In this document: positions 2,408 to 16,839 of the stretch, piece by piece
Layout of the letters: each line of letters begins with the position of its first letter
Numbering within the stretch: position 1 is the stretch's first letter
Source: Burkholderiales bacterium
GTDB taxonomy: Bacteria > Pseudomonadota > Gammaproteobacteria > Burkholderiales > SG8-39
Reading direction: 5' to 3'
DNA length: 64,000 nt
Assembly (NCBI GenBank): GCA_035500055.1
Contig: DATJXO010000091.1
Location: forward strand, 1,197 to 65,196
Translations under genes and position numbers: made by a program
The notes under the pieces: generated by a model
Told to the model about the DNA's origin: nothing
Databases searched by the model: none
What the model saw: only the letters and a program-made list of their open reading frames with translations

Positions 2408-2584
2408 CTCTAGGGTGCGGGAGACGAGCCTCCCGCTCTCTTGCTTCGCGTCTCTTTAGCCGTACTTGTTTTTCCCCGCCCATCGGCGGTGCGGCGCCCG
2501 CAAGCTGAACATCAAATCGGCGCGAGGAGTGGAAGTCTGCCCAACTTGCGGCTGGCGGTCAATTTTGGGCCGGGCGCCTGCCCC

Positions 2585-3558: not shown

Positions 3559-5203
<1,645 letters not shown>

Positions 5204-6541
5204 ATGGGCTCGACGGTCTTCGATTCGGCGCTCTATCGCGACATGTTCGGCACGGCGCCGATGCGCGCCGTGTTCTCCGACGAGGGATTCCTCGCGCGCT
5301 GCCTCGAAGTCGAGGCCGCGCTCGCGCGCGCCCAGGCCGGCCTCGGCCTGATCCCCGCCGCGGCGGCGAGCGAAATCAGCGCCAAGGCCAAAGCCGCGGC
5401 GCTCGACCCGGAGCGGCTCAAGCGCGACACCGAGGTCGTCGGCTATCCCATCCTGCCGCTGGTCCGGCAGCTGGCGGCGGCCTGCGCCGGCGACGCGGGC
5501 CGCTACGTGCACTGGGGCGCGACCACGCAGGACATCATGGACAGCGCGCTCGTGCTCCAGCTGCGCGCGGCGCTGCAGCTCGTGGAGGCCGATCTGGCCG
5601 AGGTGTCCGCGGCGCTGGCGGCGCTCGCGCGCCGGCATCGGGACACGCCGATGGCGGGTCGCACCCACCTGCAGCAGGCGCTGCCGATCACCTTCGGCTT
5701 CAAGGCGGCGGTGTGGCGCGCGCCCGTCGAGCGCCACCGCGAGCGGCTCGCGCAGATGCGGCCGCGCGTGCTGGTGGGCCAGTTCGGCGGCGCGGCGGGC
5801 ACCCTCGCCTCGCTGGGCCGGGACGGCCTCGCGGTTCGCGCCGCGCTGATGCGCGAGCTCGGCCTCGCCGAGCCGGAAATCACCTGGCACGTCGCGCGCG
5901 ACGGCATTGCGGAGGCGGTGCTGTTCGCCGGCCTGGTGACCGGCTCGCTTGCCAAGATCGCCACCGACGTCATGCTGATGATGGCGACCGAGCTGGGCGA
6001 AGCCTTCGAGCCGTTCGAGCACGGGCGCGGCGGCAGCAGCACCATGCCGCAGAAGCGCAATCCGATTTCGTCGGAGCTGATCGTCGCCTGCGCCAAGCTG
6101 GCGCGCCAGCACGGCGCGTTGATGCTGGACGCGATGGTGCAGGACTTCGAGCGCGCGACCGGCCCCTGGCACGCCGAGTGGATCGCGGTGCCCGAGAGCT
6201 TCCTGGCGATGGCCGGCGCGCTTAGGCAGGCGAAGCTGATGCTCGCCGGGCTCACGGTGGACGCCGGCCGCATGGCGCGCAACCTCGGCATGACCTCGGG
6301 GCTGATCGTGGCGGAAGCCGTCATGATGGGCCTCGCGCCCAGGCTCGGCCGGCAGACCGCGCACGACGTCGTCTACGACGCCTGCCGCGCCGCGGCCGAA
6401 GGCGAGCGCCCGCTGCTCGAGCTGCTCGCCGCCGACCCTCAGGTGGCGCCGCACTTCACGCGGCCTGAGCTCGAGCGGCTGCTCGACCCGAGCAACTACC
6501 TCGGCAGCGCCGGCGCGATGGTGGACCGTGCGCTGCGCTGA
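5204..6541 (+). CDS. pcaB: 3-carboxy-cis,cis-muconate cycloisomerase
   Basis: Fumarate-lyase superfamily signature GSSTMPQKRNP. Matches PcaB-type blocks RYVHWGATTQDIMDSALVLQLR, TPMAGRTHLQQALPITFG and LLDPSNYLGSAG. Confidence 0.88.
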   Translation: MGSTVFDSALYRDMFGTAPMRAVFSDEGFLARCLEVEAALARAQAGLGLIPAAAASEISAKAKAAALDPERLKRDTEVVGYPILPLVRQLAAACAGDAGRYVHWGATTQDIMDSALVLQLRAALQLVEADLAEVSAALAALARRHRDTPMAGRTHLQQALPITFGFKAAVWRAPVERHRERLAQMRPRVLVGQFGGAAGTLASLGRDGLAVRAALMRELGLAEPEITWHVARDGIAEAVLFAGLVTGSLAKIATDVMLMMATELGEAFEPFEHGRGGSSTMPQKRNPISSELIVACAKLARQHGALMLDAMVQDFERATGPWHAEWIAVPESFLAMAGALRQAKLMLAGLTVDAGRMARNLGMTSGLIVAEAVMMGLAPRLGRQTAHDVVYDACRAAAEGERPLLELLAADPQVAPHFTRPELERLLDPSNYLGSAGAMVDRALR

Positions 6542-7665
6542 CGGCTGTCGGCGATGTGCGCGCCGATGCGCCGGGCGGCGGCGCTGATCTCGCGCAGCAG
6601 CCCGGTCAGCGGCGTCGCGAAGCCGATCAAGTACAGCCCTGGCCGCGGCGCGATCCCGCCGTGCCGCGCGCGCCCATGCGCGTCCACCAGCTCCTCGGCG
6701 TCATCCAGCAGGCGCTCCAGGCCCGGCCGGTATCCGGTCGCGAGCACCACCGCATCGTAGGCGGTGCGGCTGTCGTCGACGAAAACCACCGCGTCGCGGT
6801 CGAAGCGCTCGATGCCCTTGCGCACGGCGATGTCCCCGCGCTTGATGCGCGCGAGCGTACCGATGTCGATCAACGGGATGCGGCCGTGCTCGACGATGCC
6901 GCGCAGCGGGCCGTAGTCCGGCCGCGCGATCCCCCAGGGCGAGAGATCGCCGACGCTGAGCTTCAGCGTCGCTTGCGCGATGACGTCCGCCAGCCCGAGC
7001 GGCAGACGGGCGAGCGCGATCGTCGGCACCGGCGTGGGCAGGCCGAGCGTGTCGCGCCGCGTGACATGCAGCGCGGCGCGCACGCACAGATCGGCGCGCG
7101 CGCCGTGCTCCGCGAGGTCGAGCGCGATTTCCGCCCCCGAGTTGCCGGCGCCGACCACCAGCACGCGCCGGTCGCGCCAGCGCGCCCCGTTGCGGTAGGC
7201 GGAGCTGTGCAGCAGCTCGCCGGCGTAGCCGTCCATGCCGGGCCAACGCGGCGTGACCGGCACGGCGTTGAGCCCGGTCGCGACCACCGCACGCTCGGCC
7301 ACCCAGTCGCCCTGATCGGTGCGCACGCGCCAGCCGGAGCGGTCCGCCTCCGGCTCCAGGCGCGTGACCGTGACACCGAAGCGGGGCGCAATTCCGAAGC
7401 GCGAGGCGTACGCCGTCAGATAGTCGATCACCTGAGCGCGCGCCGGATAGGTTGGCGCGTCCCTCGGGAACGCCATGCCCGGCAGGGAGGAGAAGCGCTT
7501 GGCGGTGTGCAGATGCAGGCGATCGTAGTGCCGATGCCAGGCCGGCGCGATGGCGCGCTCGCGCTCCACGATGTCGAAAGGCACGCCGCGGGCGCGAAGC
7601 TCGCCCGCCACCGCCAGCCCCGCGGGACCCGCGCCGACGATCAAGGTATCGAGCTGCCGCACCAT
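6496..7665 (-). CDS. Class B flavin-containing monooxygenase-like NAD(P)/FAD oxidoreductase
   Basis: Two dinucleotide-binding motifs, IVGAGPAGLA (N-terminus) and VVGAGNSGAEIA (middle). 389 aa. Confidence 0.85.
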   Translation of the reverse strand: MVRQLDTLIVGAGPAGLAVAGELRARGVPFDIVERERAIAPAWHRHYDRLHLHTAKRFSSLPGMAFPRDAPTYPARAQVIDYLTAYASRFGIAPRFGVTVTRLEPEADRSGWRVRTDQGDWVAERAVVATGLNAVPVTPRWPGMDGYAGELLHSSAYRNGARWRDRRVLVVGAGNSGAEIALDLAEHGARADLCVRAALHVTRRDTLGLPTPVPTIALARLPLGLADVIAQATLKLSVGDLSPWGIARPDYGPLRGIVEHGRIPLIDIGTLARIKRGDIAVRKGIERFDRDAVVFVDDSRTAYDAVVLATGYRPGLERLLDDAEELVDAHGRARHGGIAPRPGLYLIGFATPLTGLLREISAAARRIGAHIADSRQRSARSTIAPALPR

Positions 7666-7693
7666 CGGCAGGCGCCGAGCTACGCGACGGCGG

Positions 7694-8809
7694 CTAGGCC
7701 GTTCCCCAGACTTCGTCCGCGGTCTCGATCACCAGGCGGAGCTTGTCGCGCTGCGCCTCGACCGCGATCTTGTTGCCGTGCACGGTGCTGGAGAAGCCGC
7801 ACTGCGGCGACAGCGCGAGCTGCTCGAGCGGCGCGTAGCGGGCGGCTTCGTCGATGCGGCGCTTCAGGTCGTCCTTCTTCTCCAGCTGCCCGAGCTTGGT
7901 GGTGACTAGTCCCAGCACCACGATCTTGTCCTTGGGCAGGAAGCGGAGCGGCTTGAAGTCGCCCGAGCGCGCGTCGTCGTATTCGAGGAAGTAGGCGTCG
8001 ACGTCCATCTCCGAGAGCAGCGCCTCGGCCACCGGCTCGTAGCCGCCCTGCGCCGCCCAGGTGCTCTGGAAATTGCCGCGACACAGGTGGATCGCGAGCG
8101 TCATGCTGGCCGGCTTTTTCGCGACGACGCGGTTGATGAACTTGGCGTAGCGGTGCGGCAGCTCGTTGGGGTCGTCGCCCCGCGCTCGCGCCGCGTCGCG
8201 CATCTTGTCGTCGCAGAGGTAGGCGAGGTTGGTGTCGTCCATCTGGACGTAGGTGCAGCCCGCCCTGGCGAGGGAGGCGAGCTCCTCGCCGTAGGCCTTG
8301 GCGACGTCCTCGTAGAAGTAGGGCTCGAGCTCCGGATAGTGCTCCCTGCTGATCCCGGCGCGGCCGCCGCGGAAGTGCAGCATGGTGGGCGACGGGATGG
8401 TGACCTTCGGCGTGCGCGCGGTGTACGCCTTCAGGTACTGGAAGTCGGCGAGCTGGATGTCCTTCGCGTGGCGTACCTTGCCGACCACGCGCATCACCGG
8501 CGGCGCGAGCTCCTCGGTGCCGTCCGGCTTTTTCACCATCACCGGAATGTCGGTCTTGACGCCGCCCAGCTGCTCGAGGAAGTCGATGTGGAAGTAGGTG
8601 CGGCGGAACTCGCCGTCGGTGATCGACTGCAGCCCGACGTCCTCCTGGAACCGGATGATCTCGGTGATCGCCCTGTCCTCGATCCCGCGTAGCGCCGCGG
8701 CGTCGATCTCCCCGCGCGCTTTCTTCTCGCGCGCCTCGAGCAGGTACTTCGGCCTGAGGAAGCTGCCTACGTGATCGGCTCGGAATGGCGGGGTGGTGCG
8801 CTTTGCCAT
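7694..8809 (-). CDS. MetE C-terminal-domain-like Zn-dependent alkyl/methyltransferase (cobalamin-independent methionine synthase family, short form)
   Basis: Start re-set to MAKRTTPPFRADHVGSFLRP (ATG 8809). Zn-ligand pattern present: IHLCRGN (H-x-C) and SPQCGFSS (C). 371 aa. Confidence 0.85.
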   Translation of the reverse strand: MAKRTTPPFRADHVGSFLRPKYLLEAREKKARGEIDAAALRGIEDRAITEIIRFQEDVGLQSITDGEFRRTYFHIDFLEQLGGVKTDIPVMVKKPDGTEELAPPVMRVVGKVRHAKDIQLADFQYLKAYTARTPKVTIPSPTMLHFRGGRAGISREHYPELEPYFYEDVAKAYGEELASLARAGCTYVQMDDTNLAYLCDDKMRDAARARGDDPNELPHRYAKFINRVVAKKPASMTLAIHLCRGNFQSTWAAQGGYEPVAEALLSEMDVDAYFLEYDDARSGDFKPLRFLPKDKIVVLGLVTTKLGQLEKKDDLKRRIDEAARYAPLEQLALSPQCGFSSTVHGNKIAVEAQRDKLRLVIETADEVWGTA

Positions 8810-10251
8810 GGTTCTCTCTCCGGATTCTGGTCGTTGCGCAGGTAGGCGCCCTGCTTCGCGAGGATGCTTTGGAGCTCGGCCGCGTCGACCGCGCGCGGCT
8901 CCACCCCGCGGTCCGCGGCGAGCGCCGCGGCGGCGCCCGCGGCCTGCCCGGTGACCCAGCATTGCGGTATCTCGCGCATGAAGCCATGGGAGTTCGGGTC
9001 GCAGGAGACGTGCCGTCCGCAGGCGAGCAGGCCGTCGAGCGCCTCCGGCACGAGGCAGCCGTAGGGGATCGAAAGGTTCGGGAATTTCGGCGACACGCTC
9101 GGCGTGACGCCGATCTCGTCCCGCAGCACCTCTCCCGAGGGCCATTGCGCGCGCGCGATCCGCGCGGCGCCGCGCAGGCGGCGGGAATGCCGTACCCCGA
9201 GCTGGGGCGCCGAGAGGAAGAGGTATGCGTTCTCGAAGCCCGGCGCGTGGGCGCGGTAGAACTCCAGGTGCTGCGCCATCAGGCGATGGGAGCGCACCTC
9301 GACCTCGGTCTGGTCGTCGACGTCGAGCGCGGAAAAGCCGGACTGGCGCGGGCCCATGAAGAGCGCGATGTCGTCGCGCCACGAGACGAACGGCTTCTCG
9401 AAGGCGCGCAGCCGCTCGCGGCCGCGCTGCATGAACTGCTGGAACTCGGCCGCGTGAGAGGCGCGCCACTCGAGCCAGCGCGGCATGTCGACGCCGCCGA
9501 GGAGCCAGGCCGTATTCATGCAGTGGTGGATGTCCTCGGCCTCGATGTCGGACTCGAACGCGGCGCCGGCGCGCGCAAACAGGTCGCCGTCGCCGGTCGC
9601 GTCCACCACCACCTTCGCGCGCACCGCCTGGCGGCCGGCCTTGCTCTCGAAGATCGCCCCGCGCACCCGCCCGTCCTGCATGAGCGGTGCGGCGGCCCAG
9701 GTGTGGAACGCCAGATGAACGCCCTGTTCCAGGACAATTTCCTGCGAGGCGAGCTTGAGGCGCTCCGGGTCGATGGTCGGCGACCAGGTGACGATGCCGT
9801 GCCACGCCGCCGTGCGCAGCGCCCAGTGCGCCGCGCGCGCCGGCTCGCGCGAGCCCCATTCCTCCGGCTTCGGGCCGGCGACGGCGTCCGCCGGCAGGCG
9901 CTCGAGGATCTCCTCGGCGAAGCCCCGGATCACGCACTGCCCGTTCCAGTCGGTCATGCGGTCGATCCAGATCACCAGCCCGCCGGTCGAGAGGCCGCCG
10001 AGGTGGTTGTACCGCTCGAGCAGCACGACCTCCGCGCCGCGCCGCGCGGCGGCGACCGCCGCCGCGGTGCCCGAAGGCCCGCCGCCGACGACCAGCACGT
10101 CGCAGTCTCGATAGACGGGGATCCTGCGCGCCGCTTCCTCGACCGACCCGAGCTCGCGGCGCGCCTCGCGCCGCCGCTGCTCGCCGAAGATCTCGACGTC
10201 GAAGATCTCGGACGAGAGGATCCGCTCCTCGGTGGGTTTTCTCTCCTTCAC
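8767..10251 (-). CDS. FAD-dependent oxidoreductase (GxGxxG flavoprotein, unknown substrate)
   Basis: DVLVVGGGPSGTAAAVAAARRGAEVVLLERYNHLGG, 494 aa, GTG start. The 3' end overlaps the next gene by 43 nt. Confidence 0.8.
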   Translation of the reverse strand: MKERKPTEERILSSEIFDVEIFGEQRRREARRELGSVEEAARRIPVYRDCDVLVVGGGPSGTAAAVAAARRGAEVVLLERYNHLGGLSTGGLVIWIDRMTDWNGQCVIRGFAEEILERLPADAVAGPKPEEWGSREPARAAHWALRTAAWHGIVTWSPTIDPERLKLASQEIVLEQGVHLAFHTWAAAPLMQDGRVRGAIFESKAGRQAVRAKVVVDATGDGDLFARAGAAFESDIEAEDIHHCMNTAWLLGGVDMPRWLEWRASHAAEFQQFMQRGRERLRAFEKPFVSWRDDIALFMGPRQSGFSALDVDDQTEVEVRSHRLMAQHLEFYRAHAPGFENAYLFLSAPQLGVRHSRRLRGAARIARAQWPSGEVLRDEIGVTPSVSPKFPNLSIPYGCLVPEALDGLLACGRHVSCDPNSHGFMREIPQCWVTGQAAGAAAALAADRGVEPRAVDAAELQSILAKQGAYLRNDQNPEREPWQSAPPRHSEPIT

Positions 10252-10269
10252 GGTTTTCGGAGCGGATTC

Positions 10270-10800
10270 CTAGAGATCAAAGAACACGGTTTCGCCGGGT
10301 CCCTGCAGCACCACGTTCCATTCCAGAGAGTCTCCCTTCCGCTTCGCGACGAGCGTCTGTCGCCGATCGGCCGGCACCAGGGCGAGGACCGGGTCTTCGG
10401 CGTTTGCCGGGTCGTCCGGAAAGTAGATGCGGCTCACCAGCTGCTTCAGCTGCCCGCGCATGAATATGTTGGCGGCGACATGCGGCGCCTGCAGCTTGCC
10501 GCCGGGCCCGGGCACGCGCCCCGGCTTTATGGTGCGGAACCGGAAGCGCCCGGCCGCGTCGGTTGCCGAGCGGCCGAAGCCGCGGAAGCCTTTCGCCCCG
10601 TAGCGGCCCGCCGCGTCGGCCTGCCAGATCTCGACCAGCGCGTCGTCTACCGGCTTGCCGTCGCCGTCGACGACGCGGCCCTCGAGGGTGATGCGCTCGC
10701 CCGCGGCACCGGCGGGGGCGAGATCCTCGGTGATGAGCCATGTCAGGCCGATGTGCAGGTAGGGGCCGACGGTCTGGGAGGTGGTCGCGTGCAGGCTCAT
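10270..10800 (-). CDS. pcaG: Protocatechuate 3,4-dioxygenase alpha subunit
   Basis: TTSQTVGPYLHIGL..., VEIWQADAAGRY, APHVAANIFMRG. ATGA overlap with pcaH. Confidence 0.9.
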   Translation of the reverse strand: MSLHATTSQTVGPYLHIGLTWLITEDLAPAGAAGERITLEGRVVDGDGKPVDDALVEIWQADAAGRYGAKGFRGFGRSATDAAGRFRFRTIKPGRVPGPGGKLQAPHVAANIFMRGQLKQLVSRIYFPDDPANAEDPVLALVPADRRQTLVAKRKGDSLEWNVVLQGPGETVFFDL

Positions 10801-11531
10801 CGAGGATTCTCCATCGGCGTGTAATCCGGCCCGCGCAGCACGACGTCGAAGCGGTAGCCGAGCGCGATCTCCGGGAGGGTGGTTTCCCAGTCGAGCGCCG
10901 ACACCAGCCGCGACCGCGCTCGCTCGTCCGGCACGCAGTTGTACATCGGGTCTTCGGCGAGCAGCGGGTCGCCCGGGAAGTACATCTGCGTCACCAGGCG
11001 CGTGGCGAAGGCCGGGCCGAAGATCGAGAAGTGGATGTGCGCCGGGCGCCAGGCGTTGTAGTGGTTACGCCAGGGATATTCGCCAGGCCGGATGGTGACG
11101 AAGCGGTAGCGTCCCTCGGCGTCGGTCAGGCAGCGGCCGGCGCCGGTGAAGTTCGGGTCCGTCGGCGCGTCGTGCTGGTCCACCTTGTGCGGGTAGCGGC
11201 CCGCCGAATTCGCTTGCCAGACTTCGACCAGCGTGTGCGGCACCGGCCGCGCGTTCTCGTCGAGCACGCGGCCGGAGACGACGATGCGCTCGCCGATCGG
11301 GTCGCCGGCGTGCTGGCGGGTGAGGTCGGCGTCGCCCGGGCGCACTTCGTCGTGGCCGAACGCCGGGCCGCTCAGCTCGGTGAGCGTCTGCGGCACGATG
11401 ACCAGCGGGCGCGTCGGCGCGCGCTTCACGGTCGAGGCGTACCTCGGAAAAAGGTAGTCCGGCTGTGTGCCGGCGGCCGGCCGCCGGTAGGCGGTTACCT
11501 GGCCTTGGGGTTGCTCGAGTTCTCTTTTCAT
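10797..11531 (-). CDS. pcaH: Protocatechuate 3,4-dioxygenase beta subunit
   Basis: VEVWQANSAGRYPHK, RPGEYPWRNHYNAWRPAHIHFSIFG (Fe ligand region), 244 aa. Confidence 0.92.
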   Translation of the reverse strand: MKRELEQPQGQVTAYRRPAAGTQPDYLFPRYASTVKRAPTRPLVIVPQTLTELSGPAFGHDEVRPGDADLTRQHAGDPIGERIVVSGRVLDENARPVPHTLVEVWQANSAGRYPHKVDQHDAPTDPNFTGAGRCLTDAEGRYRFVTIRPGEYPWRNHYNAWRPAHIHFSIFGPAFATRLVTQMYFPGDPLLAEDPMYNCVPDERARSRLVSALDWETTLPEIALGYRFDVVLRGPDYTPMENPR

Positions 11532-11536
11532 CGTTT

Positions 11537-12187
11537 CTACTCCGCGTCAGGCTGCCTGGCGGGATGCGCGCGTTCGAAGGCGTCGAGCCCCATGCAGCCG
11601 GCGAATACCCGCATCACCGCGGGGAAGGCCGTAGTGTCGCACTGATAGCGCTGCGCGTTGAAGACCTGCGGCACCAGGCAGCAATCGGCAAGGGTCGGCG
11701 AATCGCCGTGGCAATAGGCGCCGGTGCCAACCGAGCCCTCGGGCTTGCGCTGCAGCTCGGCCTCTACGCGGGCCAGGCCGTCGGCGACCCAGTGCCGGTA
11801 CCAGGCGTCGACCTGCTCCTGGCTCCGGCCGAGCGCGCCCTTCAGGTGCTGCAGCACCCGCAGGTTGTTGATCGGGTGAATCTCGCAGGCGACCAGCAGC
11901 GCGATCGAGCGCACGCGCGCCCGCTCGAACGGATTCCTAGGCAGCAGCGGCGGCCGGGGGTGCGTTTCCTCCAGGTATTCGATGATTGCGAGCGACTGAT
12001 TGAGCAGGTGCCCATGGTCCTCCAGCGTCGGCAGCAGCGCCTGCGGATTGACCGTGCCGTACGCCGGCGCACGGTGCTCCCCCTTCGCCAGGTGCACGAA
12101 CGCCGGCTCGTAGGCGAGCCCCTTCAGGTTCAGCGCGATCCGCACGCGGAACGCGGCCGAGCTGCGGAAGTAGGTGTAGAGCCTCAT
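11537..12187 (-). CDS. maiA: Zeta-class glutathione S-transferase (maleylacetoacetate/maleylpyruvate isomerase-like)
   Basis: Start re-set to MRLYTYFRSSAAFRVRIALNLKGL (ATG 12187, ATGA overlap with the upstream stop). ...VNPQALLPTL... QSLAIIEYLEE. Confidence 0.85.
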   Translation of the reverse strand: MRLYTYFRSSAAFRVRIALNLKGLAYEPAFVHLAKGEHRAPAYGTVNPQALLPTLEDHGHLLNQSLAIIEYLEETHPRPPLLPRNPFERARVRSIALLVACEIHPINNLRVLQHLKGALGRSQEQVDAWYRHWVADGLARVEAELQRKPEGSVGTGAYCHGDSPTLADCCLVPQVFNAQRYQCDTTAFPAVMRVFAGCMGLDAFERAHPARQPDAE

Positions 12188-13050
12188 TTCAGGCCGAGCA
12201 GTCTCGCCGCGTTCTGCTTCAGGATCAACGGCCGCACCTCCGGCTTGATCGGCAGCTTCTCGAAGTCCGCCAGCCACCGGTCGGGCTGAATCACCGGGTT
12301 GTCGCTGCCGAAGAGCACTCGGTCCTTGAGCAGCGTGTTGGCGTATTGCACCAGCTTCGGCTCGAAGTATTTCGGCGACCAGCCCGAGAGATCGATCCAT
12401 ACGTTCGGCTTGTGCAGCGCGACCGAGAGCTGCTCGTCCTGCCACGGCACCGCCGGGTGCGCGAGCACGATCGGCATCTCGGGAAAGTCGGCGGCGACGT
12501 CGTCGAGGAGGATCGGGTTGGCGTACTTGATGCGCAGGCCGCCGCCGCCTGGCATGCCGGCGCCGATGCCGGTCTGCCCGGTATGGAACAGCGCCGGCAG
12601 CTTCGCCTCCGCGATCGCTTCGTACAGCGGATACACGTCGCGGTCGTTGGGAAAGAAGCCCTGGATGATGGGATGGAACTTGAAGCCGCGCACGCCGAAA
12701 TCCCGGATCAGGCGCTTCGCCTCGCGCACGCCCATGCGGCCGCGCGCGGGGTCGATGCTGGCGAACGGGATCGCGACGTCGGCGTGCTCGTGCGCGGACT
12801 CGGCGACTTCCTCGTTGGAGATGCGGCGGATGCCCATGCCGCGCTCGTGGTCCACGGTGAAGACGACGAAGGCCATTTTCCGCGCGCGGTAGTACGCGGC
12901 CATCTGCGCGATGGTCGGGTGCTTCACCTCATAGCGGAAATAGCGGCCGCGTGCCTCGAGCGCTTCTTTCTCCGCCTCGTCCGGTAGCGCGCGGGTCGAT
13001 ACCTCGGCGTGGGTATGGATGTCGATCGCGACCAGGTTATCGATGTTCAT
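12184..13050 (-). CDS. Amidohydrolase_2-family metal-dependent hydrolase/decarboxylase/hydratase
   Basis: Start re-set to MNIDNLVAIDIHTHAEV (HxH metal motif). ...FKFHP..., ...LFGSDNP... 288 aa. ATGA overlap with the upstream stop. Confidence 0.85.
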   Translation of the reverse strand: MNIDNLVAIDIHTHAEVSTRALPDEAEKEALEARGRYFRYEVKHPTIAQMAAYYRARKMAFVVFTVDHERGMGIRRISNEEVAESAHEHADVAIPFASIDPARGRMGVREAKRLIRDFGVRGFKFHPIIQGFFPNDRDVYPLYEAIAEAKLPALFHTGQTGIGAGMPGGGGLRIKYANPILLDDVAADFPEMPIVLAHPAVPWQDEQLSVALHKPNVWIDLSGWSPKYFEPKLVQYANTLLKDRVLFGSDNPVIQPDRWLADFEKLPIKPEVRPLILKQNAARLLGLK

Positions 13051-14825
13051 GCCTGCACCTGTATGACGTTGGAAGCGGGGGGATCGGCGTAGAGCTGCTC
13101 GACCAGCGCCGAGCGCACCCGCAGCACCGCGCGCTGGTTGATGGAGCCCTTGTCGGTGACCTCGCCGGCGTCGATCGACGGCGGCACCTCGAGCACCATC
13201 GCGCGCGCGACGCGGTTGGAGCTCCCCGAGCTTTCGCGCGCGAGCTCCGCGAACACCCGCTCGAGCTTCGCGCGCAGCGCGCCGTCGCCGAGCTCGCGCG
13301 CCGCGGCGCTGGGGAAGACCAGCGCGCCCAGCTCGTCGCGATCGTGCCCGGTAATGACGCTGTCCTGGATCCACGGCGCGCCCGCCGCGTTGATGCGCGC
13401 GCGCAGAGGCCCGACCCGCGCCCACGTGCCCGACGAGAGCTTGAAGTCCTCGGCGATGCGGCCGTCGAATTCCAGGCCGAGCGACGGGTCGGCGGGATCC
13501 AGAAAGCGCATCGCGTCGCCCGTGCGGTAGTAGCCCTCCTCGTCGAAGGCCGCGCGCGAGAGCTCGGGCTGGCGCCAGTAGCCGGGGGTGATGTGCGGGC
13601 CGCGAAAGCGCACCTCGAGCTTGTCGTCGACCGGCACGAGCTTCATCTCGGCGCCGTCCACCGGCAGCCCGACGCTGCCCGCGCGTGGTGCGCCGCGGTT
13701 GGTGCTCATGGTGAAGGGCGCGGTCTCGGTCGAGCCGTAGCCGGTGATCCAGAGCACGCGCTCGCCGCAGGTTTCCTGCGCGAGGTCCTCGTACGCGCGC
13801 CACACCGGCTGCGGCAGCACCGCCGCGGCGTATTGCATCAGGCCGAGGCGGCTGAAGAAGTTGCGCCGCAGCTCGCGGTCGGCGCGCAGGTACGGCAGCA
13901 GCGCCTCGTAGCCGCGAGGCACGTTGAAGTAGATCGTGGGCGCGATTTCGCGCAGGTTGCGCACGGTCTTCTCGATCAGGCCGGGCAGCGGCCGCCCCTC
14001 GTCGATGTAGAGCGTGCCGCCGTGGCTCAGCACGATGCCCAGGTTGTGGTTCGCGCCGGCGGTGTGGTTCCAGGGCAGCCAGTCGACCAGCACCGGCGGC
14101 TGCTCGGCAAGCGAGGGCAGCGATTGCGCGAGCATCTGCTGGTTGCTGCAGAGCATGCGCTGGGTGTTGATGACGGCCTTCGGCTGCCCGGTCGAGCCCG
14201 AGGTGAGCAGGAACTTGGCGACCGTATCGGGCCCGACCGCGGCATGGGCCGCCTCCACCGCCGAGGTCGGTCGGGTTGCGGCGAGCTGATGGAAGCGCTC
14301 GCCGGTGACGATCTCGGTGCCGGAGGGCACTGCCGCGGCGATCGCGCGCCCGTAGCGTGCGGCGTCGCTGGCGTACACCAGCCCGGGTGTGAGCAGCGCG
14401 AGCGCCTGCTTCAGCTTCGCGAAATCGGCCGACAGCAGCGAGTACGCGGGCGACACCGGGACGAAGGCGATGCCCGCGTGCATCGCCGCGAGCGCGAGCA
14501 GCGCGTGCTCGAGGTCGTTCTCCGACAGGATCGCGAGCGGCCGCTCGGCGGAAAGCCGGCGCTCGATCAGCGCCTGGGCGAGAGCCCGCACGTGCTCGAA
14601 CGCATCGCCGTAGGCAAGCCGGCGCCAGGCGCCTGCCGCCGTCCGCTGCGCCAGAAACGGGCGTGCGGGGGCGGCGGCCGCCCAGTACACCAAGCGCTCC
14701 GTGAGCCGCGCGCCGTAAGGCGCGAGCGAGTGCGGCGAGCGCAGCAGGATCGAGCCGTCGGCTCGCCGCTCGATTTCGACCTCGGCGCGGCCTAGCCGAA
14801 CCGCGCGCACGGGGACGGCGCTCAT
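13047..14825 (-). CDS. AMP-forming acyl-CoA synthetase, feruloyl-CoA synthase (Fcs)-like
   Basis: LLTSGSTGQPKAV, GYGSTETAP, YYRTGD, ...EVTDKGSINQRAVL C-terminus. 592 aa. Confidence 0.85.
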   Translation of the reverse strand: MSAVPVRAVRLGRAEVEIERRADGSILLRSPHSLAPYGARLTERLVYWAAAAPARPFLAQRTAAGAWRRLAYGDAFEHVRALAQALIERRLSAERPLAILSENDLEHALLALAAMHAGIAFVPVSPAYSLLSADFAKLKQALALLTPGLVYASDAARYGRAIAAAVPSGTEIVTGERFHQLAATRPTSAVEAAHAAVGPDTVAKFLLTSGSTGQPKAVINTQRMLCSNQQMLAQSLPSLAEQPPVLVDWLPWNHTAGANHNLGIVLSHGGTLYIDEGRPLPGLIEKTVRNLREIAPTIYFNVPRGYEALLPYLRADRELRRNFFSRLGLMQYAAAVLPQPVWRAYEDLAQETCGERVLWITGYGSTETAPFTMSTNRGAPRAGSVGLPVDGAEMKLVPVDDKLEVRFRGPHITPGYWRQPELSRAAFDEEGYYRTGDAMRFLDPADPSLGLEFDGRIAEDFKLSSGTWARVGPLRARINAAGAPWIQDSVITGHDRDELGALVFPSAAARELGDGALRAKLERVFAELARESSGSSNRVARAMVLEVPPSIDAGEVTDKGSINQRAVLRVRSALVEQLYADPPASNVIQVQA

Positions 14826-14832
14826 GGCGCCG

Positions 14833-15525
14833 CTACAGCGCCGGGACGATCTTCACCTTGAGCTCGCCCACGCCGTCGATGCCGGCGTGCAGCTCGTCGC
14901 CCGGCTTGACCGGACCGACGCCGGCCGGCGTGCCGGAATAGATCAGGTCGCCCGGCTCCAGCGTGTAGTACTCGGACAGGAACGCGATCTGCTCGGGCAC
15001 CGACCAGATCATGTCCGAGAGGTCGGCCTTCTGCCGTTCCTTGCCGTTCACCCTGAGCCAGATCGCGCCCTTCGCCGGGTAGCCGATCTTCGAGGCCGGC
15101 GCGAGCGCGCTGCAGGGCGCCGCCTCGTCGAAGTCCTTGCCGAAATCCCACGGCCGGCCGTGGTCCTTGCCGACCTGCTGCAGGTCGCGGCGCGTCATGT
15201 CGAGCCCGGTGCCGTAGCCGAAGATGTGCTCGTTCGCCTTGGCCGCGGCGATGCGGCGCCCACCCTTGGCGATCGCCACCACCATCTCCGTTTCGTAGTG
15301 GTAGTTCGAGGTCTTCGGCGGGTAGTGCACCTCGCCGCCTCCGGCAACCAGCGCGTGCGCCGCCTTGAGGAAGAAGAACGGGGTCTCGCGGCCGTCGCCC
15401 CCCATTTCCTTCTGGTGCTCGACGTAGTTGCGCCCGACGCAGAAGATGCGGCGCACCGGAAACATGTCGCCGCTGCCGGTGACCGGAAGCGCCGGGGGAC
15501 TCCAGATCGGGATTGCGAAGGCCAT
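14833..15525 (-). CDS. Fumarylacetoacetate hydrolase (FAH) family protein (fumarylpyruvate hydrolase-like)
   Basis: RIFCVGRNYVEHQKEMG, YETEMVVAIAKGG, EPGDLIYSGTPAGVG. 230 aa. First gene of the minus-strand operon. Confidence 0.85.
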   Translation of the reverse strand: MAFAIPIWSPPALPVTGSGDMFPVRRIFCVGRNYVEHQKEMGGDGRETPFFFLKAAHALVAGGGEVHYPPKTSNYHYETEMVVAIAKGGRRIAAAKANEHIFGYGTGLDMTRRDLQQVGKDHGRPWDFGKDFDEAAPCSALAPASKIGYPAKGAIWLRVNGKERQKADLSDMIWSVPEQIAFLSEYYTLEPGDLIYSGTPAGVGPVKPGDELHAGIDGVGELKVKIVPAL

Positions 15526-15630
15526 CGCGGGGGTTCTCCTGGGAGGTTGCCGACGGGAAAAGGGCTGTTGCTGCCCGTTATTTTAGCGATTAGCATTACC
15601 GGCTCGCATTTCCAGCGACAGGAGGAGACC
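15526..15630. promoter_or_regulatory. Divergent promoter region between the catabolic operon and the ABC importer
   Basis: 105-bp gap, locally AT-richer (CGTTATTTTAGCGATTAGCATTACC with a TTAGC-N2-TTAGC direct repeat). Strong RBS GGAGGAG lies 4 nt before ATG 15631. Confidence 0.45.
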
Positions 15631-16839
15631 ATGATTCGCAGAATCGGTGTGCTGGCGCTTGCGCTGGCGGCGGCCGCGCTGGCCGCGTTTGCCACGGGGG
15701 CGTCGGCGCAGACCGTCAAGGTCGGCGTGGTGCTGCCCTACTCGGGAATCGGCGCGGAATTCGCGCAGCAGGTCGACCGCGGCATGAAGATATTCATGCA
15801 GCTGCATCCCGGCGCCTTCGGCAGCTACAAGATCGAGCTCGTCAAGCGCGACTCGAAGAACCCGAGCGGCGCGCCCGCGAAGACCGCGGTGCAGGAGCTG
15901 ATCACCCAGGACAAGGTGGACATCCTCACCGGGTTCATCTTCTCGCCGGATGCGATCGCCTCCGCGCCCCTGGTGACCGAGGCGAACAAGCCCATGATCA
16001 TCATGAACGCGGGCACGGCGTGGATCACGGATCTCTCGCCCGACATTGCGCGCGTCTCCTTCTCGATGTGGCACGCGGGCTTCGCGATGGGCCAGACCGC
16101 CGCGAAGATGCTGCACGCGAAGACCGCGGTGGTCGGCTATACCGACTATCCGCCGGGCAAGGACAGCCTGGAGGCCTTCAAGCACGGCTTCGAGGCGAAC
16201 GGCGGCAAGGTGATCGACGCGATTCCGATGGGCAGCCCGGCCAAGGTGCCGGATTTCACCCCGTTCTTCCAGCGCGTCAAGGACGAGAAGCCCGACGTGT
16301 TCTTCGTGTTCGTGCCCGCGGGCGACCACGCCGTCGCGGTGGCGAAGACCTACGCCGCGCTCGGCATGAAGCAGGCCGGCATCAAGCTGATCGGGCCCGG
16401 CGACATCACGCAGGACACCGAGCTGCAGAAAATGGGCGACGACGCGGTGGGGCTGATCACGGTGCACCACTACAACGCGGACCTCGACAATCCCGCCAAC
16501 AAGCGCTTCGTCGCCGCGTGGAAGAAGGAGTACGGCGCCGACTCGACTCCCGATTTCATGGCGGTGCAGGGCTACGACGGCATGGCGGCGATCGCGCACG
16601 TGGTCACCTCGCTTAAGGGCAAGATCGACGGCACCAGCGCGATGAAGGCGCTCGAGGGCTGGAAGTTCGACAGCCCGCAAGGCCCGATCATGATCGACCC
16701 GGCCACCCGCGACATCGTGATGAACGAGTACGTGAGCGAGCTGGAGAAGAAGGACGGCCGCATGGTGCAGAAGAACATCGGCGTCATCAAGGCGGTCAAG
16801 GACATGTGCAAGGAGCTGAAGGTCGGCCGCTGCAAATAG
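15631..16839 (+). CDS. ABC transporter periplasmic substrate-binding protein (Liv/branched-chain-type fold; substrate probably aromatic acid)
   Basis: Start re-set to MIRRIGVLALALAAAALAAFATGASAQ (signal peptide). TVKVGVVLPYSGIGAEF..., 402 aa. Confidence 0.88.
   Translation: MIRRIGVLALALAAAALAAFATGASAQTVKVGVVLPYSGIGAEFAQQVDRGMKIFMQLHPGAFGSYKIELVKRDSKNPSGAPAKTAVQELITQDKVDILTGFIFSPDAIASAPLVTEANKPMIIMNAGTAWITDLSPDIARVSFSMWHAGFAMGQTAAKMLHAKTAVVGYTDYPPGKDSLEAFKHGFEANGGKVIDAIPMGSPAKVPDFTPFFQRVKDEKPDVFFVFVPAGDHAVAVAKTYAALGMKQAGIKLIGPGDITQDTELQKMGDDAVGLITVHHYNADLDNPANKRFVAAWKKEYGADSTPDFMAVQGYDGMAAIAHVVTSLKGKIDGTSAMKALEGWKFDSPQGPIMIDPATRDIVMNEYVSELEKKDGRMVQKNIGVIKAVKDMCKELKVGRCK

Follow-up and report, generated by a model that had tools for sequence, protein, structure and literature searches.

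A short MetE-like protein linked to vanillate and protocatechuate genes in Burkholderiales is a candidate homocysteine S-methyltransferase with an accidental flavoprotein neighbour

The methionine synthase MetE of Escherichia coli binds its zinc through His641, Cys643, Glu665 and Cys726 and its homocysteine through Ser433, Glu484 and Asp599 (PMC7857596). Among the short relatives of MetE, the Firmicute gene yxjH is induced by methionine limitation, has a methionine T-box upstream and is co-transcribed with luxS, and yxjH and yxjG are under methionine T-box or S-box control (PMC6004538). The Listeria protein of PDB entry 1YPX is a "putative B12-independent methionine synthase family protein" from structural genomics, with no assigned function. 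The place of these Firmicute relatives in the methionine regulon ties the wider family to homocysteine methylation. Here we analysed a stretch of 64,000 nucleotides (nt), the window, from contig DATJXO010000091.1 of an uncultured Burkholderiales bacterium (70.7% G+C). It holds a gene for a MetE-like protein of 371 amino acids (aa) (7694..8809, minus strand), overlapped by the gene of a 494-aa oxidoreductase dependent on flavin adenine dinucleotide (FAD) (8767..10251, minus strand), here called the flavoprotein. The reading that we tentatively favour, with a little less than even confidence in the whole picture, is that the MetE-like protein acts as a core homocysteine S-methyltransferase in connection with the catabolism of methoxy-aromatic compounds and that the flavoprotein is separate from it.

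The MetE-like gene begins with ATG and encodes the N-terminus MAKRTTPPFRADHVGSFLRP. Its product has a single Pfam match, PF01717 Meth_synt_2 (70.7 bits, gathering threshold 21; residues 13-342 on model positions 5-306 of 324), and consists of one domain, without the folate/polyglutamate-binding N-domain (Meth_synt_1). In NCBIfam, NF005085 (PRK06520) was matched over nearly its whole length at 445.6 bits against a cut-off of 313 (residues 3-368 on model 2-368 of 368). The YxjG/YxjH equivalog NF004875 (PRK06233) gave 325.6 bits, below its cut-off of 576; the protein falls in a sister subfamily rather than in the same equivalog. The models of MetE proper, TIGR01371 and NF003556, were matched in their C-terminal half only, the former at 44.2 bits (cut-off 930) and the latter at 49 bits (cut-off 541). 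By these profile scores the protein belongs to the PRK06520 "methionine synthase II" subfamily, which is large, known and biochemically uncharacterised; the family comprised 1219 clusters at 50% identity (E <= 1e-30). A 100% identical protein is present in NCBI from a Burkholderiales metagenome-assembled genome (MAG), and the public copy of the exact sequence carries a generic MetE name. A literature search that combined names of the enzyme family with terms of aromatic demethylation and catabolism returned no paper on PRK06520 activity or on an aromatic linkage, in agreement with the statement of an earlier sequence-only reading of this locus that neither of the two activities it proposed is established for the subfamily.

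That reading had also pointed to a zinc pattern of H-x-C (IHLCRGN) and a distal cysteine (SPQCGFSS) and had judged the protein probably an active zinc enzyme. Both parts held, and a fourth ligand, E276, was added. The codons of H241-L242-C243 (8081..8089), of E276 in FLEYDD (7982..7984) and of C337 in SPQCGF (7799..7801), all on the minus strand, were assigned by alignment; across 75 diverse members of the family, H241, C243, E276 and C337 each show a conservation of at least 90%. S16 (in GSF), E67 (in DGE) and D191 (in QxD) are near-invariant in the same alignment. In profile and pairwise alignments the conserved residues fall on the MetE motifs HMC, S-I-E, NPDCG, IGSF, HGE and QIDE: H241-x-C243 aligns with HMC of the Thermotoga maritima enzyme, E276 with the glutamate of S-I-E in Candida MetE and with LE of 3RPD, and C337 with NPDCG of Candida MetE and CG of 3RPD. 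As aligned, the protein keeps every one of the four zinc ligands of MetE and its three residues for binding homocysteine. With its zinc site complete, the protein is probably catalytically active.

An AlphaFold2 model built with 75 diverse relatives reached a mean confidence (pLDDT) of 95.6. The top fold matches of this model were 1YPX, followed by the MetE catalytic domains of Thermotoga, Candida, Neurospora and Streptococcus (template modelling score, TM, ~0.7) and then by 3RPD. The corrinoid MT2 methyltransferases and UroD ranked far lower.

The genomic contexts of MetE-like orthologues were surveyed in 80 metagenome loci (79-89% identity) mapped with a reference-protein panel, of which 60 had at least 1.2 kb of upstream flank and formed the informative subset (related loci are cited below by L numbers). 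The immediate upstream neighbour in these 60 was the flavoprotein gene in 14, the binding-protein gene of an ATP-binding cassette (ABC) transporter in 11, a divergent vanA in 10, and pcaG, vanA, vanB, pobA or a van-type GntR gene (vanR) in one each. In the 10 divergent loci, vanA (with Rieske and VanA_C domains) is followed by the GntR regulator gene and vanB, and the ABC binding-protein gene is mostly an orthologue of the one that comes after vanB in L145, L156 and L167. A pca, van or pob gene lies within 6 kb in 36 of the 80 loci. Examples are L005, a Pfam-annotated contig with vanA-GntR-vanB and an ABC transporter near the MetE-like gene; L003 (Rhizobacter sp. OV335), with pcaH, IclR, pobA, AraC and an ABC transporter; and L090, with the order pcaH-pcaG-MetE-like-pobA-pcaB. 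Orthologues occur between pcaHG and pcaB both with and without the flavoprotein gene. In two further loci (L124 and L141) the MetE-like gene is adjoined by a LysR gene and a gene for 4-oxalomesaconate tautomerase, an enzyme of the gallate / protocatechuate-4,5 pathway; the tautomerase match reached 534 bits, with the cut-off at 440. The LysR protein of these two loci was considered as a possible MetR and rejected, its NCBIfam matches being generic for LysR and its divergent neighbour the tautomerase gene.

The aromatic setting that the sequence-only reading saw around the window genes is borne out by pcaH and pcaG within the operon and by pobA and pcaB nearby, and the linkage to aromatic genes in other genomes, on which that reading had staked its proposal, was looked for and found, namely to genes of vanillate demethylase and of the protocatechuate pathway. 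The independent arrangements all indicate the same chemistry. Within the literature searched, this association of the MetE-like gene with vanillate and protocatechuate genes is unreported, and it is the new result here.

Several orthologues stand in other company. In L152 (8072..9911) the MetE-like orthologue lies by ArsR and a sulfite-oxidase-like molybdoenzyme, and in L091 (8168..9874) by a SulP transporter; these sulfur-gene neighbours are compatible with a role in sulfur amino-acid metabolism. No orthologue of more than 60% identity was found in the plasmid database. The best annotated match there, which was uninformative on the aromatic question, is a 49.5%-identical gene, named 'methionine synthase II family', carried by the Klebsiella pneumoniae plasmid NZ_CP084844.1 (L087, 6998..13757). 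Such MetE-like genes are found on Klebsiella and Pantoea IncF plasmids, where a urtABCDE-like ABC transporter comes directly after them and insertion sequences lie on either side. The plasmid urt-type transporter resembles the neighbour type seen in Burkholderiales, which hints at an imported substrate for the enzyme.

Conserved boxes were observed in the spacers between vanA and the MetE-like gene. A TGTATACA box lies next to vanA and a TGTATYCA box 38-75 nt before the MetE-like ATG, the two being ~75 nt apart; the pattern occurs 27 times in 747 kb, and 22 of these are the boxes in such spacers. These boxes are AT-rich within an otherwise GC-rich divergent promoter region, located at 7775..8001 in L005 and in the corresponding vanA/MetE-like spacers; the other spacers with boxes are those of L118, L121, L131, L142, L145, L149, L156, L159, L160, L165, L167 and L169. 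A third conserved element, GGGTTAnCCC, stands between the two boxes. The two boxes look like GntR-type operators and are candidate sites for the VanR-like regulator encoded alongside, which suggests co-regulation of the MetE-like gene with vanAB. An Rfam scan of the window and seven related loci placed no element of any kind near the MetE-like gene, riboswitches for S-adenosylmethionine (SAM) or B12 included. Upstream of metH, L090 has a SAM-II (SAM_alpha) riboswitch (12518..12594; 39.4 bits, gathering threshold 36), and the metH leader of the window (2436..2536, minus strand) has a sub-threshold SAM-II match of 14.8 bits, overlapping a likewise sub-threshold match on the opposite strand to the Burkholderia small RNA candidate Bp2_287 (35.9 against 70 bits).

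The flavoprotein gene starts with GTG, and this start agrees with the N-termini of 120 homologues. Its product matches PF12831 FAD_oxidored over the full length (280 bits, gathering threshold 27; model 1-416 of 416), and the dinucleotide-binding motif GGGPSG (residues 56-61; 10069..10086, minus strand) is invariant in 45 homologues. A PDB search with its sequence returned Rossmann N-terminal matches only, and the AlphaFold2 model (45 homologues, all at least 76% identical) had a pLDDT of 50, which was too poor, and was left unused. Scanning one genome per species, relatives were found in at least 552 genomes. Neighbourhoods were counted in the best 80 loci (65-81% identity), which come from Variovorax, Ramlibacter, Acidovorax, Methylibium and many MAGs. 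Clustering of the flanking open reading frames (ORFs) gave as neighbours TctC in 48 of these loci, the large subunit of aconitase X (AcnX) in 45, the small (swivel) AcnX subunit in 41, and IclR and an IlvD/EDD dehydratase in 34 each. About 45 Burkholderiales genomes share an operon of one or more TctC genes, flavoprotein, IclR, AcnX large, AcnX swivel and IlvD/EDD (L027-L086; for example L074 7838..15898, L046 12421..13716 and L065 13931..15700). It looks like a putative, uncharacterised carboxylic-acid catabolic pathway with a two-subunit bacterial aconitase X. Enzymes of the AcnX type include cis-3-hydroxy-L-proline dehydratases and phosphomevalonate dehydratases (PMC5144071, PMC8184944).

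The 494-aa flavoprotein with its GGGPSG motif and the 43-nt overlap with the MetE-like gene had both been described from the sequence alone, and both were confirmed. The flavoprotein stop codon lies inside the MetE-like gene, the coding overlap spans 8767..8809 (minus strand), and both ORF starts are supported by homologues. For the MetE-like protein, the 120 closest homologues (82-100% identity, 368-373 aa) all begin M-x-x-R-x-x-P/A-PFRAD at the same position. A mis-called start at ATG 8809, giving a false overlap, was accordingly considered and rejected, as the homologue starts coincide with it. A Shine-Dalgarno-like site, GGAGAGAG (8814..8821, minus strand), precedes the ATG within the flavoprotein tail and agrees with these starts. 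The identical overlap occurs in seven other contigs (L001, L002, L008, L009, L014, L018 and L023), and GGAG-type sites equivalent to that of the window are present in other overlap-type loci.

At junctions of the gap type, the flavoprotein ends in ...AYLRPRARKVAASA* and a spacer of 24-85 nt follows. At overlap-type junctions, the sequence beyond ...AYLR is replaced and the stop is lost, so that the frame enters the MetE-like gene for 43 nt (...SAPIT*); the tail after ...GAYLR is not conserved with respect to gap-type homologues. An intermediate arrangement is seen in L088, with the order flavoprotein-IclR-AcnX-AcnX-MetE-like-4HBT-HtrA-metH. Its large AcnX gene has a 102-residue internal deletion (residues 269-370), and its small (swivel) AcnX gene is frameshifted and reads in frame into the MetE-like ORF. 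Because IclR and AcnX genes in decay still separate the flavoprotein gene from the MetE-like gene in L088, the overlap looks like a deletion scar. The simplest history would be that a flavoprotein block was inserted between pcaG and the MetE-like gene, that its IclR and AcnX genes decayed and were later deleted, and that a final deletion of ~95 nt took the flavoprotein stop codon, leaving the 43-nt overlap and a ribosome-binding site in the tail. The overlap is a derived deletion state, and the overlap and pairing together are ordinary operon compaction; translational coupling across the overlap is possible, as an incidental effect.

Two side observations concern this region in relatives. In the decaying AcnX region of L088 (2906..4360), the swivel gene running into the MetE-like ORF had been called as a 487-aa PF01989+PF01717 'fusion' (P0013). 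The pcaG-flavoprotein interval is an insertion hot spot, with inserts that vary from a VanA-like Rieske oxygenase and a thiamine diphosphate-dependent enzyme (benzoylformate-decarboxylase-like) to a TRAP transporter on the opposite strand and sugar-nucleotide genes (L011 8961..9992; L020 8192..9982; L093 315..2051; L107 6722..8512; L008 6901..9929; L098 6124..8499).

From the adjacency and overlap, the sequence-only reading had proposed a two-protein demethylase or thiol-alkyl-transfer module. This part did not survive the comparison with other genomes, in which the MetE-like gene stands beside the flavoprotein gene in only 12 of the 80 flavoprotein loci, all with the order pcaH-pcaG-(variable insert)-flavoprotein-MetE-like; the partners of the flavoprotein are TctC, IclR, AcnX and IlvD. 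Seen from the other side, the flavoprotein is missing beside the majority of MetE-like orthologues, and in L090, L095, L106, L109 and L112 the MetE-like gene lies in a pca cluster without it; in L090 it comes straight after pcaG with no flavoprotein between. In the tree of MetE-like proteins, the flavoprotein-free L095, L106, L109 and L112 are nested among flavoprotein-bearing loci, which makes the flavoprotein dispensable for the role of the MetE-like protein. The two proteins are not a dedicated pair, and their neighbourship is accidental. A true two-enzyme module, in which the flavoprotein would make or process a one-carbon (C1) donor by analogy with MesD and MesX, is in our judgement improbable. 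The flavoprotein might, for example, reduce the S-hydroxymethyl-homocysteine adduct formed from formaldehyde, with the overlap enforcing stoichiometric co-translation. Such a module would account for an adjacency kept in the window and ~28 related contigs and for the recurrence, in at least 8 contigs, of the 43-nt overlap together with an internal ribosome-binding site, and it has a precedent in MesD, a core MetE homologue that requires an oxygen-dependent partner protein (PMC7857596). The flavoprotein has also stayed intact (73-81% identity) though IclR and AcnX were lost, which could mean that it gained a role in the operon and which weighs against its being a mere bystander. However, the pairing is limited to one clade and has been lost repeatedly inside it, 68 of the 80 flavoprotein loci lack the MetE-like gene and have the other conserved operon instead, the flavoprotein is always absent where the MetE-like gene belongs to the vanA, ABC-transporter or LysR clade, and the junction length ranges from -43 to +85 nt.

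In the mechanism that we favour for the MetE-like protein, homocysteine would be bound as a zinc thiolate and methylated to methionine, with a methyl donor other than methyl-tetrahydrofolate. The likeliest donor would be the methoxy group of a vanillate-type aromatic acid, leaving protocatechuate for PcaHG; alternatively, the donor could be a C1 unit released by the demethylation of that methoxy-aromatic. The reaction would be a small anabolic side-flux beside the bulk VanAB and PobA routes, yielding B12-independent methionine while methoxy-aromatics are present and not replacing VanAB, since methionine is not recyclable at catabolic rates. In its most specific form, the PRK06520 protein would be a cobalamin- and folate-independent aryl-methyl-ether:homocysteine S-methyltransferase, making methionine from the methoxy groups of lignin-derived acids (vanillate, 3-O-methylgallate, syringate) while the protocatechuate or gallate produced enters the adjacent ring cleavage; we consider this specific assignment unlikely. 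Several points weigh against a link to methoxy-aromatics. The donor assignment draws solely on gene neighbourhood, and an aryl methyl ether that is not further activated gives up its methyl group poorly to a zinc thiolate. Many arginines are conserved family-wide, Firmicutes included, which suggests that the common donor need not be aromatic. VanAB, with which the gene frequently co-occurs, already demethylates vanillate. The contexts are clade-specific and represent some four or five independent arrangements, not dozens; 20 of the 60 informative loci have no panel protein or recognised aromatic neighbour upstream, and the neighbours in L091, L113, L119, L152 and L161 are unrelated (SulP, PLD-like, ArsR with a sulfite-oxidase-like gene, ABC exporter). 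Finally, the whole pca clade, like the window, has metH at a distance of 3-7 kb, and the synteny may be partly inherited chromosome order.

Alternatively, the gene could encode a housekeeping methionine synthase of an ordinary, alternative kind that draws on a universal donor unrelated to aromatics (for instance a small methylated metabolite or monoglutamyl methyl-folate), and its aromatic neighbourhood would be synteny inherited in genomes dense in catabolic genes. We consider this unlikely, though likelier than the other alternatives. It accords with the conservation of the homocysteine and zinc residues across the family, Firmicutes included, with the position of yxjH in the Firmicute methionine regulon (PMC6004538), with the nearby metH, with the 79-90% protein identity across genera that a central enzyme would show, with the non-aromatic neighbours of one third of the informative loci and with the Klebsiella plasmid copy that adjoins a urea-type ABC transporter. 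It does not account for the at least four architectures that put the gene by vanillate, protocatechuate or gallate genes, nor for the candidate VanR boxes conserved in the spacer shared with vanA; the missing SAM/B12 riboswitch and folate-binding domain also speak against it, and characterised core MetE enzymes work without methyl-tetrahydrofolate (PMC7857596). The divergent arrangement with vanA-vanR-vanB and the shared boxes could instead reflect the handling of formaldehyde-thiol adducts, induced together with VanAB and protecting the thiol pool during O-demethylation. VanAB releases formaldehyde, and a zinc-thiolate site with a pocket for an amino-acid thiol would suit a protein that binds homocysteine or cysteine and forms or opens S-hydroxymethyl thiols, thiazinane or thiazolidine carboxylates. 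We regard this as very improbable: the pca-clade and pobA-linked contexts, the window included, have no vanAB and hence no formaldehyde source, the Firmicute relatives track methionine supply rather than aldehyde stress, and we know of no MetE-family member that acts in this way. Thiol addition to an epoxide or quinone, the other activity put forward from the sequence alone, found no support; the homocysteine residues and the Firmicute methionine regulon point to homocysteine methylation instead. An addition of this kind, resembling that of epoxyalkane:coenzyme M transferase (EaCoMT) and acting on a product of the neighbouring flavin oxygenases, would draw on the common H-x-C...C zinc motif and fold family and on the flavin monooxygenase genes nearby (an FMO-like gene at 6496..7665 and pobA at 3559..4848). 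It is extremely improbable, given that the FMO-like gene is unique to the window contig, that the conserved residues binding the amino and carboxylate groups fit homocysteine and not coenzyme M or glutathione, and that none of the clades has a linked alkene or arene monooxygenase that would form epoxides.

The flavoprotein and MetE-like genes are the seventh and eighth of a tightly packed nine-gene operon on the minus strand, in which the upstream genes are separated by gaps or overlaps of at most 7 nt. The order, from Pfam and NCBIfam matches, is FAA-family hydrolase (14833..15525), coenzyme A ligase (13047..14825), Amidohydro_2 (12184..13050), zeta-class glutathione S-transferase (GST), maiA-like (11537..12181), pcaH (10797..11531), pcaG (10270..10800), flavoprotein, MetE-like and an FMO/ArsO-like flavin monooxygenase (6496..7665). 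The two protocatechuate 3,4-dioxygenase genes directly upstream of the flavoprotein gene scored 352.5 bits with TIGR02422 (pcaH, cut-off 296) and 207.3 bits with TIGR02423 (pcaG, cut-off 126). The last gene of the operon starts 28 nt downstream of the MetE-like gene and its product matches PF13738 and PF00743; with NF040505 it gave 175 bits, under the cut-off of 425. No tblastn match to it was found in any of ~170 related loci, which marks it as a recent insertion into the window operon.

Past the operon lie pcaB and a 4HBT thioesterase gene on the plus strand, followed on the minus strand by pobA, an HtrA-like protease gene and metH; a divergent branched-chain-type ABC transporter begins at 15700. 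No vanAB genes are present within the window. The pcaB and 4HBT pair is inverted relative to L001, and the same inversion is seen in L100, L101 and L151. A promoter and terminator scan of 6300-15800 found nothing exceeding shuffle expectation. When compared with homologues and domain positions, the program-made ORF list was seen to over-extend several genes in this 71% G+C DNA. The GST ORF is listed as 302 aa (11537..12445, minus strand) where homologues and domains indicate ~214 aa with a start near 12181, the Amidohydro_2 ORF as 539 aa (12184..13803, minus strand) where they indicate ~288 aa with a start near 13050, and the MetE-like ORF as 747 aa from a GTG at 9937, its true length being 371 aa.

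Short proteins of the YxjG/PRK06520 type are found in thousands of bacteria and are routinely annotated as methyl-folate-dependent methionine synthases despite lacking the folate domain. The repeated placement of the gene by van, pca and gallate genes gives a concrete and cheaply testable donor candidate, namely aromatic methoxy groups or their C1 product. If true, lignin turnover would be linked to a B12-independent supply of methionine, the methyl donor would be found for a very large orphan branch of MetE, and a fourth mechanistic class of aromatic O-demethylase, oxygen-independent and of use in lignin valorisation, would be added. If the donor reading is wrong, an over-reading is still corrected, with the 43-nt overlap taken as a deletion scar and not as evidence of joint action.

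Among the described systems, the YxjG/YxjH proteins (PRK06233; 1YPX of Listeria) stand closest. They are likewise single-domain proteins of ~370 aa that align end to end with the MetE-like protein (E = 1.8e-99 to 1YPX), the Firmicute sequences being ~42-46% identical and that of Listeria ~46%, and they share with it the residues for zinc and homocysteine as well as two motifs specific to the family, HxCRGN and LEYD. They differ in their T-box/S-box control and luxS linkage, whereas the Burkholderiales orthologues have no riboswitch and lie in pca/van/pob clusters. The two-domain MetE (~750 aa) has the same catalytic (beta/alpha)8 fold (TM ~0.7), with zinc held by His/Cys/Glu/Cys and homocysteine by Ser/Glu/Asp, at ~19% identity by structural alignment. 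Unlike the window protein, it carries the N-terminal Meth_synt_1 domain that is needed for binding methyl-tetrahydropteroyl-triglutamate. MesA-MesD are likewise short, keep the zinc and homocysteine residues and do not take their methyl group from methyl-folate (PMC7857596). MesD, however, depends on the neighbouring oxygen-dependent partner MesX, whereas the neighbour in the window is a dispensable PF12831 flavoprotein; PF08908 (DUF1852, MesX) was absent from the called neighbours of L001, L003-L006 and L088-L091 and from the Pfam-scanned window operon. The relationship to these enzymes is distant: 3RPD, the selenomethionine-bound structure of a short B12-independent synthase, scored 130 bits with the family profile (over 13-341) and is ~20% identical to the window protein.

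Alkylation of a thiol by a short MetE-family zinc enzyme with an H-x-C...C motif is the chemistry of EaCoMT (XecA/EtnE). The window protein retains the residues that hold the amino-acid moiety of homocysteine, and no alkene monooxygenase or coenzyme M genes were linked to it in the panel or in Pfam scans of the neighbourhoods. Nor was a corrinoid protein gene linked to the MetE-like gene in the annotated neighbourhoods. LigM-type enzymes establish that corrinoid-free, direct methyl transfer from an aryl ether is feasible. The net reaction proposed here, from a vanillate-type acid to protocatechuate, would be alike to that of VanAB (Rieske) and of LigM/DesA (tetrahydrofolate-dependent, GcvT-like), but these have no kinship in sequence or fold with the window protein, and the methyl group would pass to a zinc-activated thiol, where those enzymes rely on O2/NADH or tetrahydrofolate. 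Given this lack of homology to the known O-demethylases, any demethylase role of the MetE-like protein would be a new mechanism.

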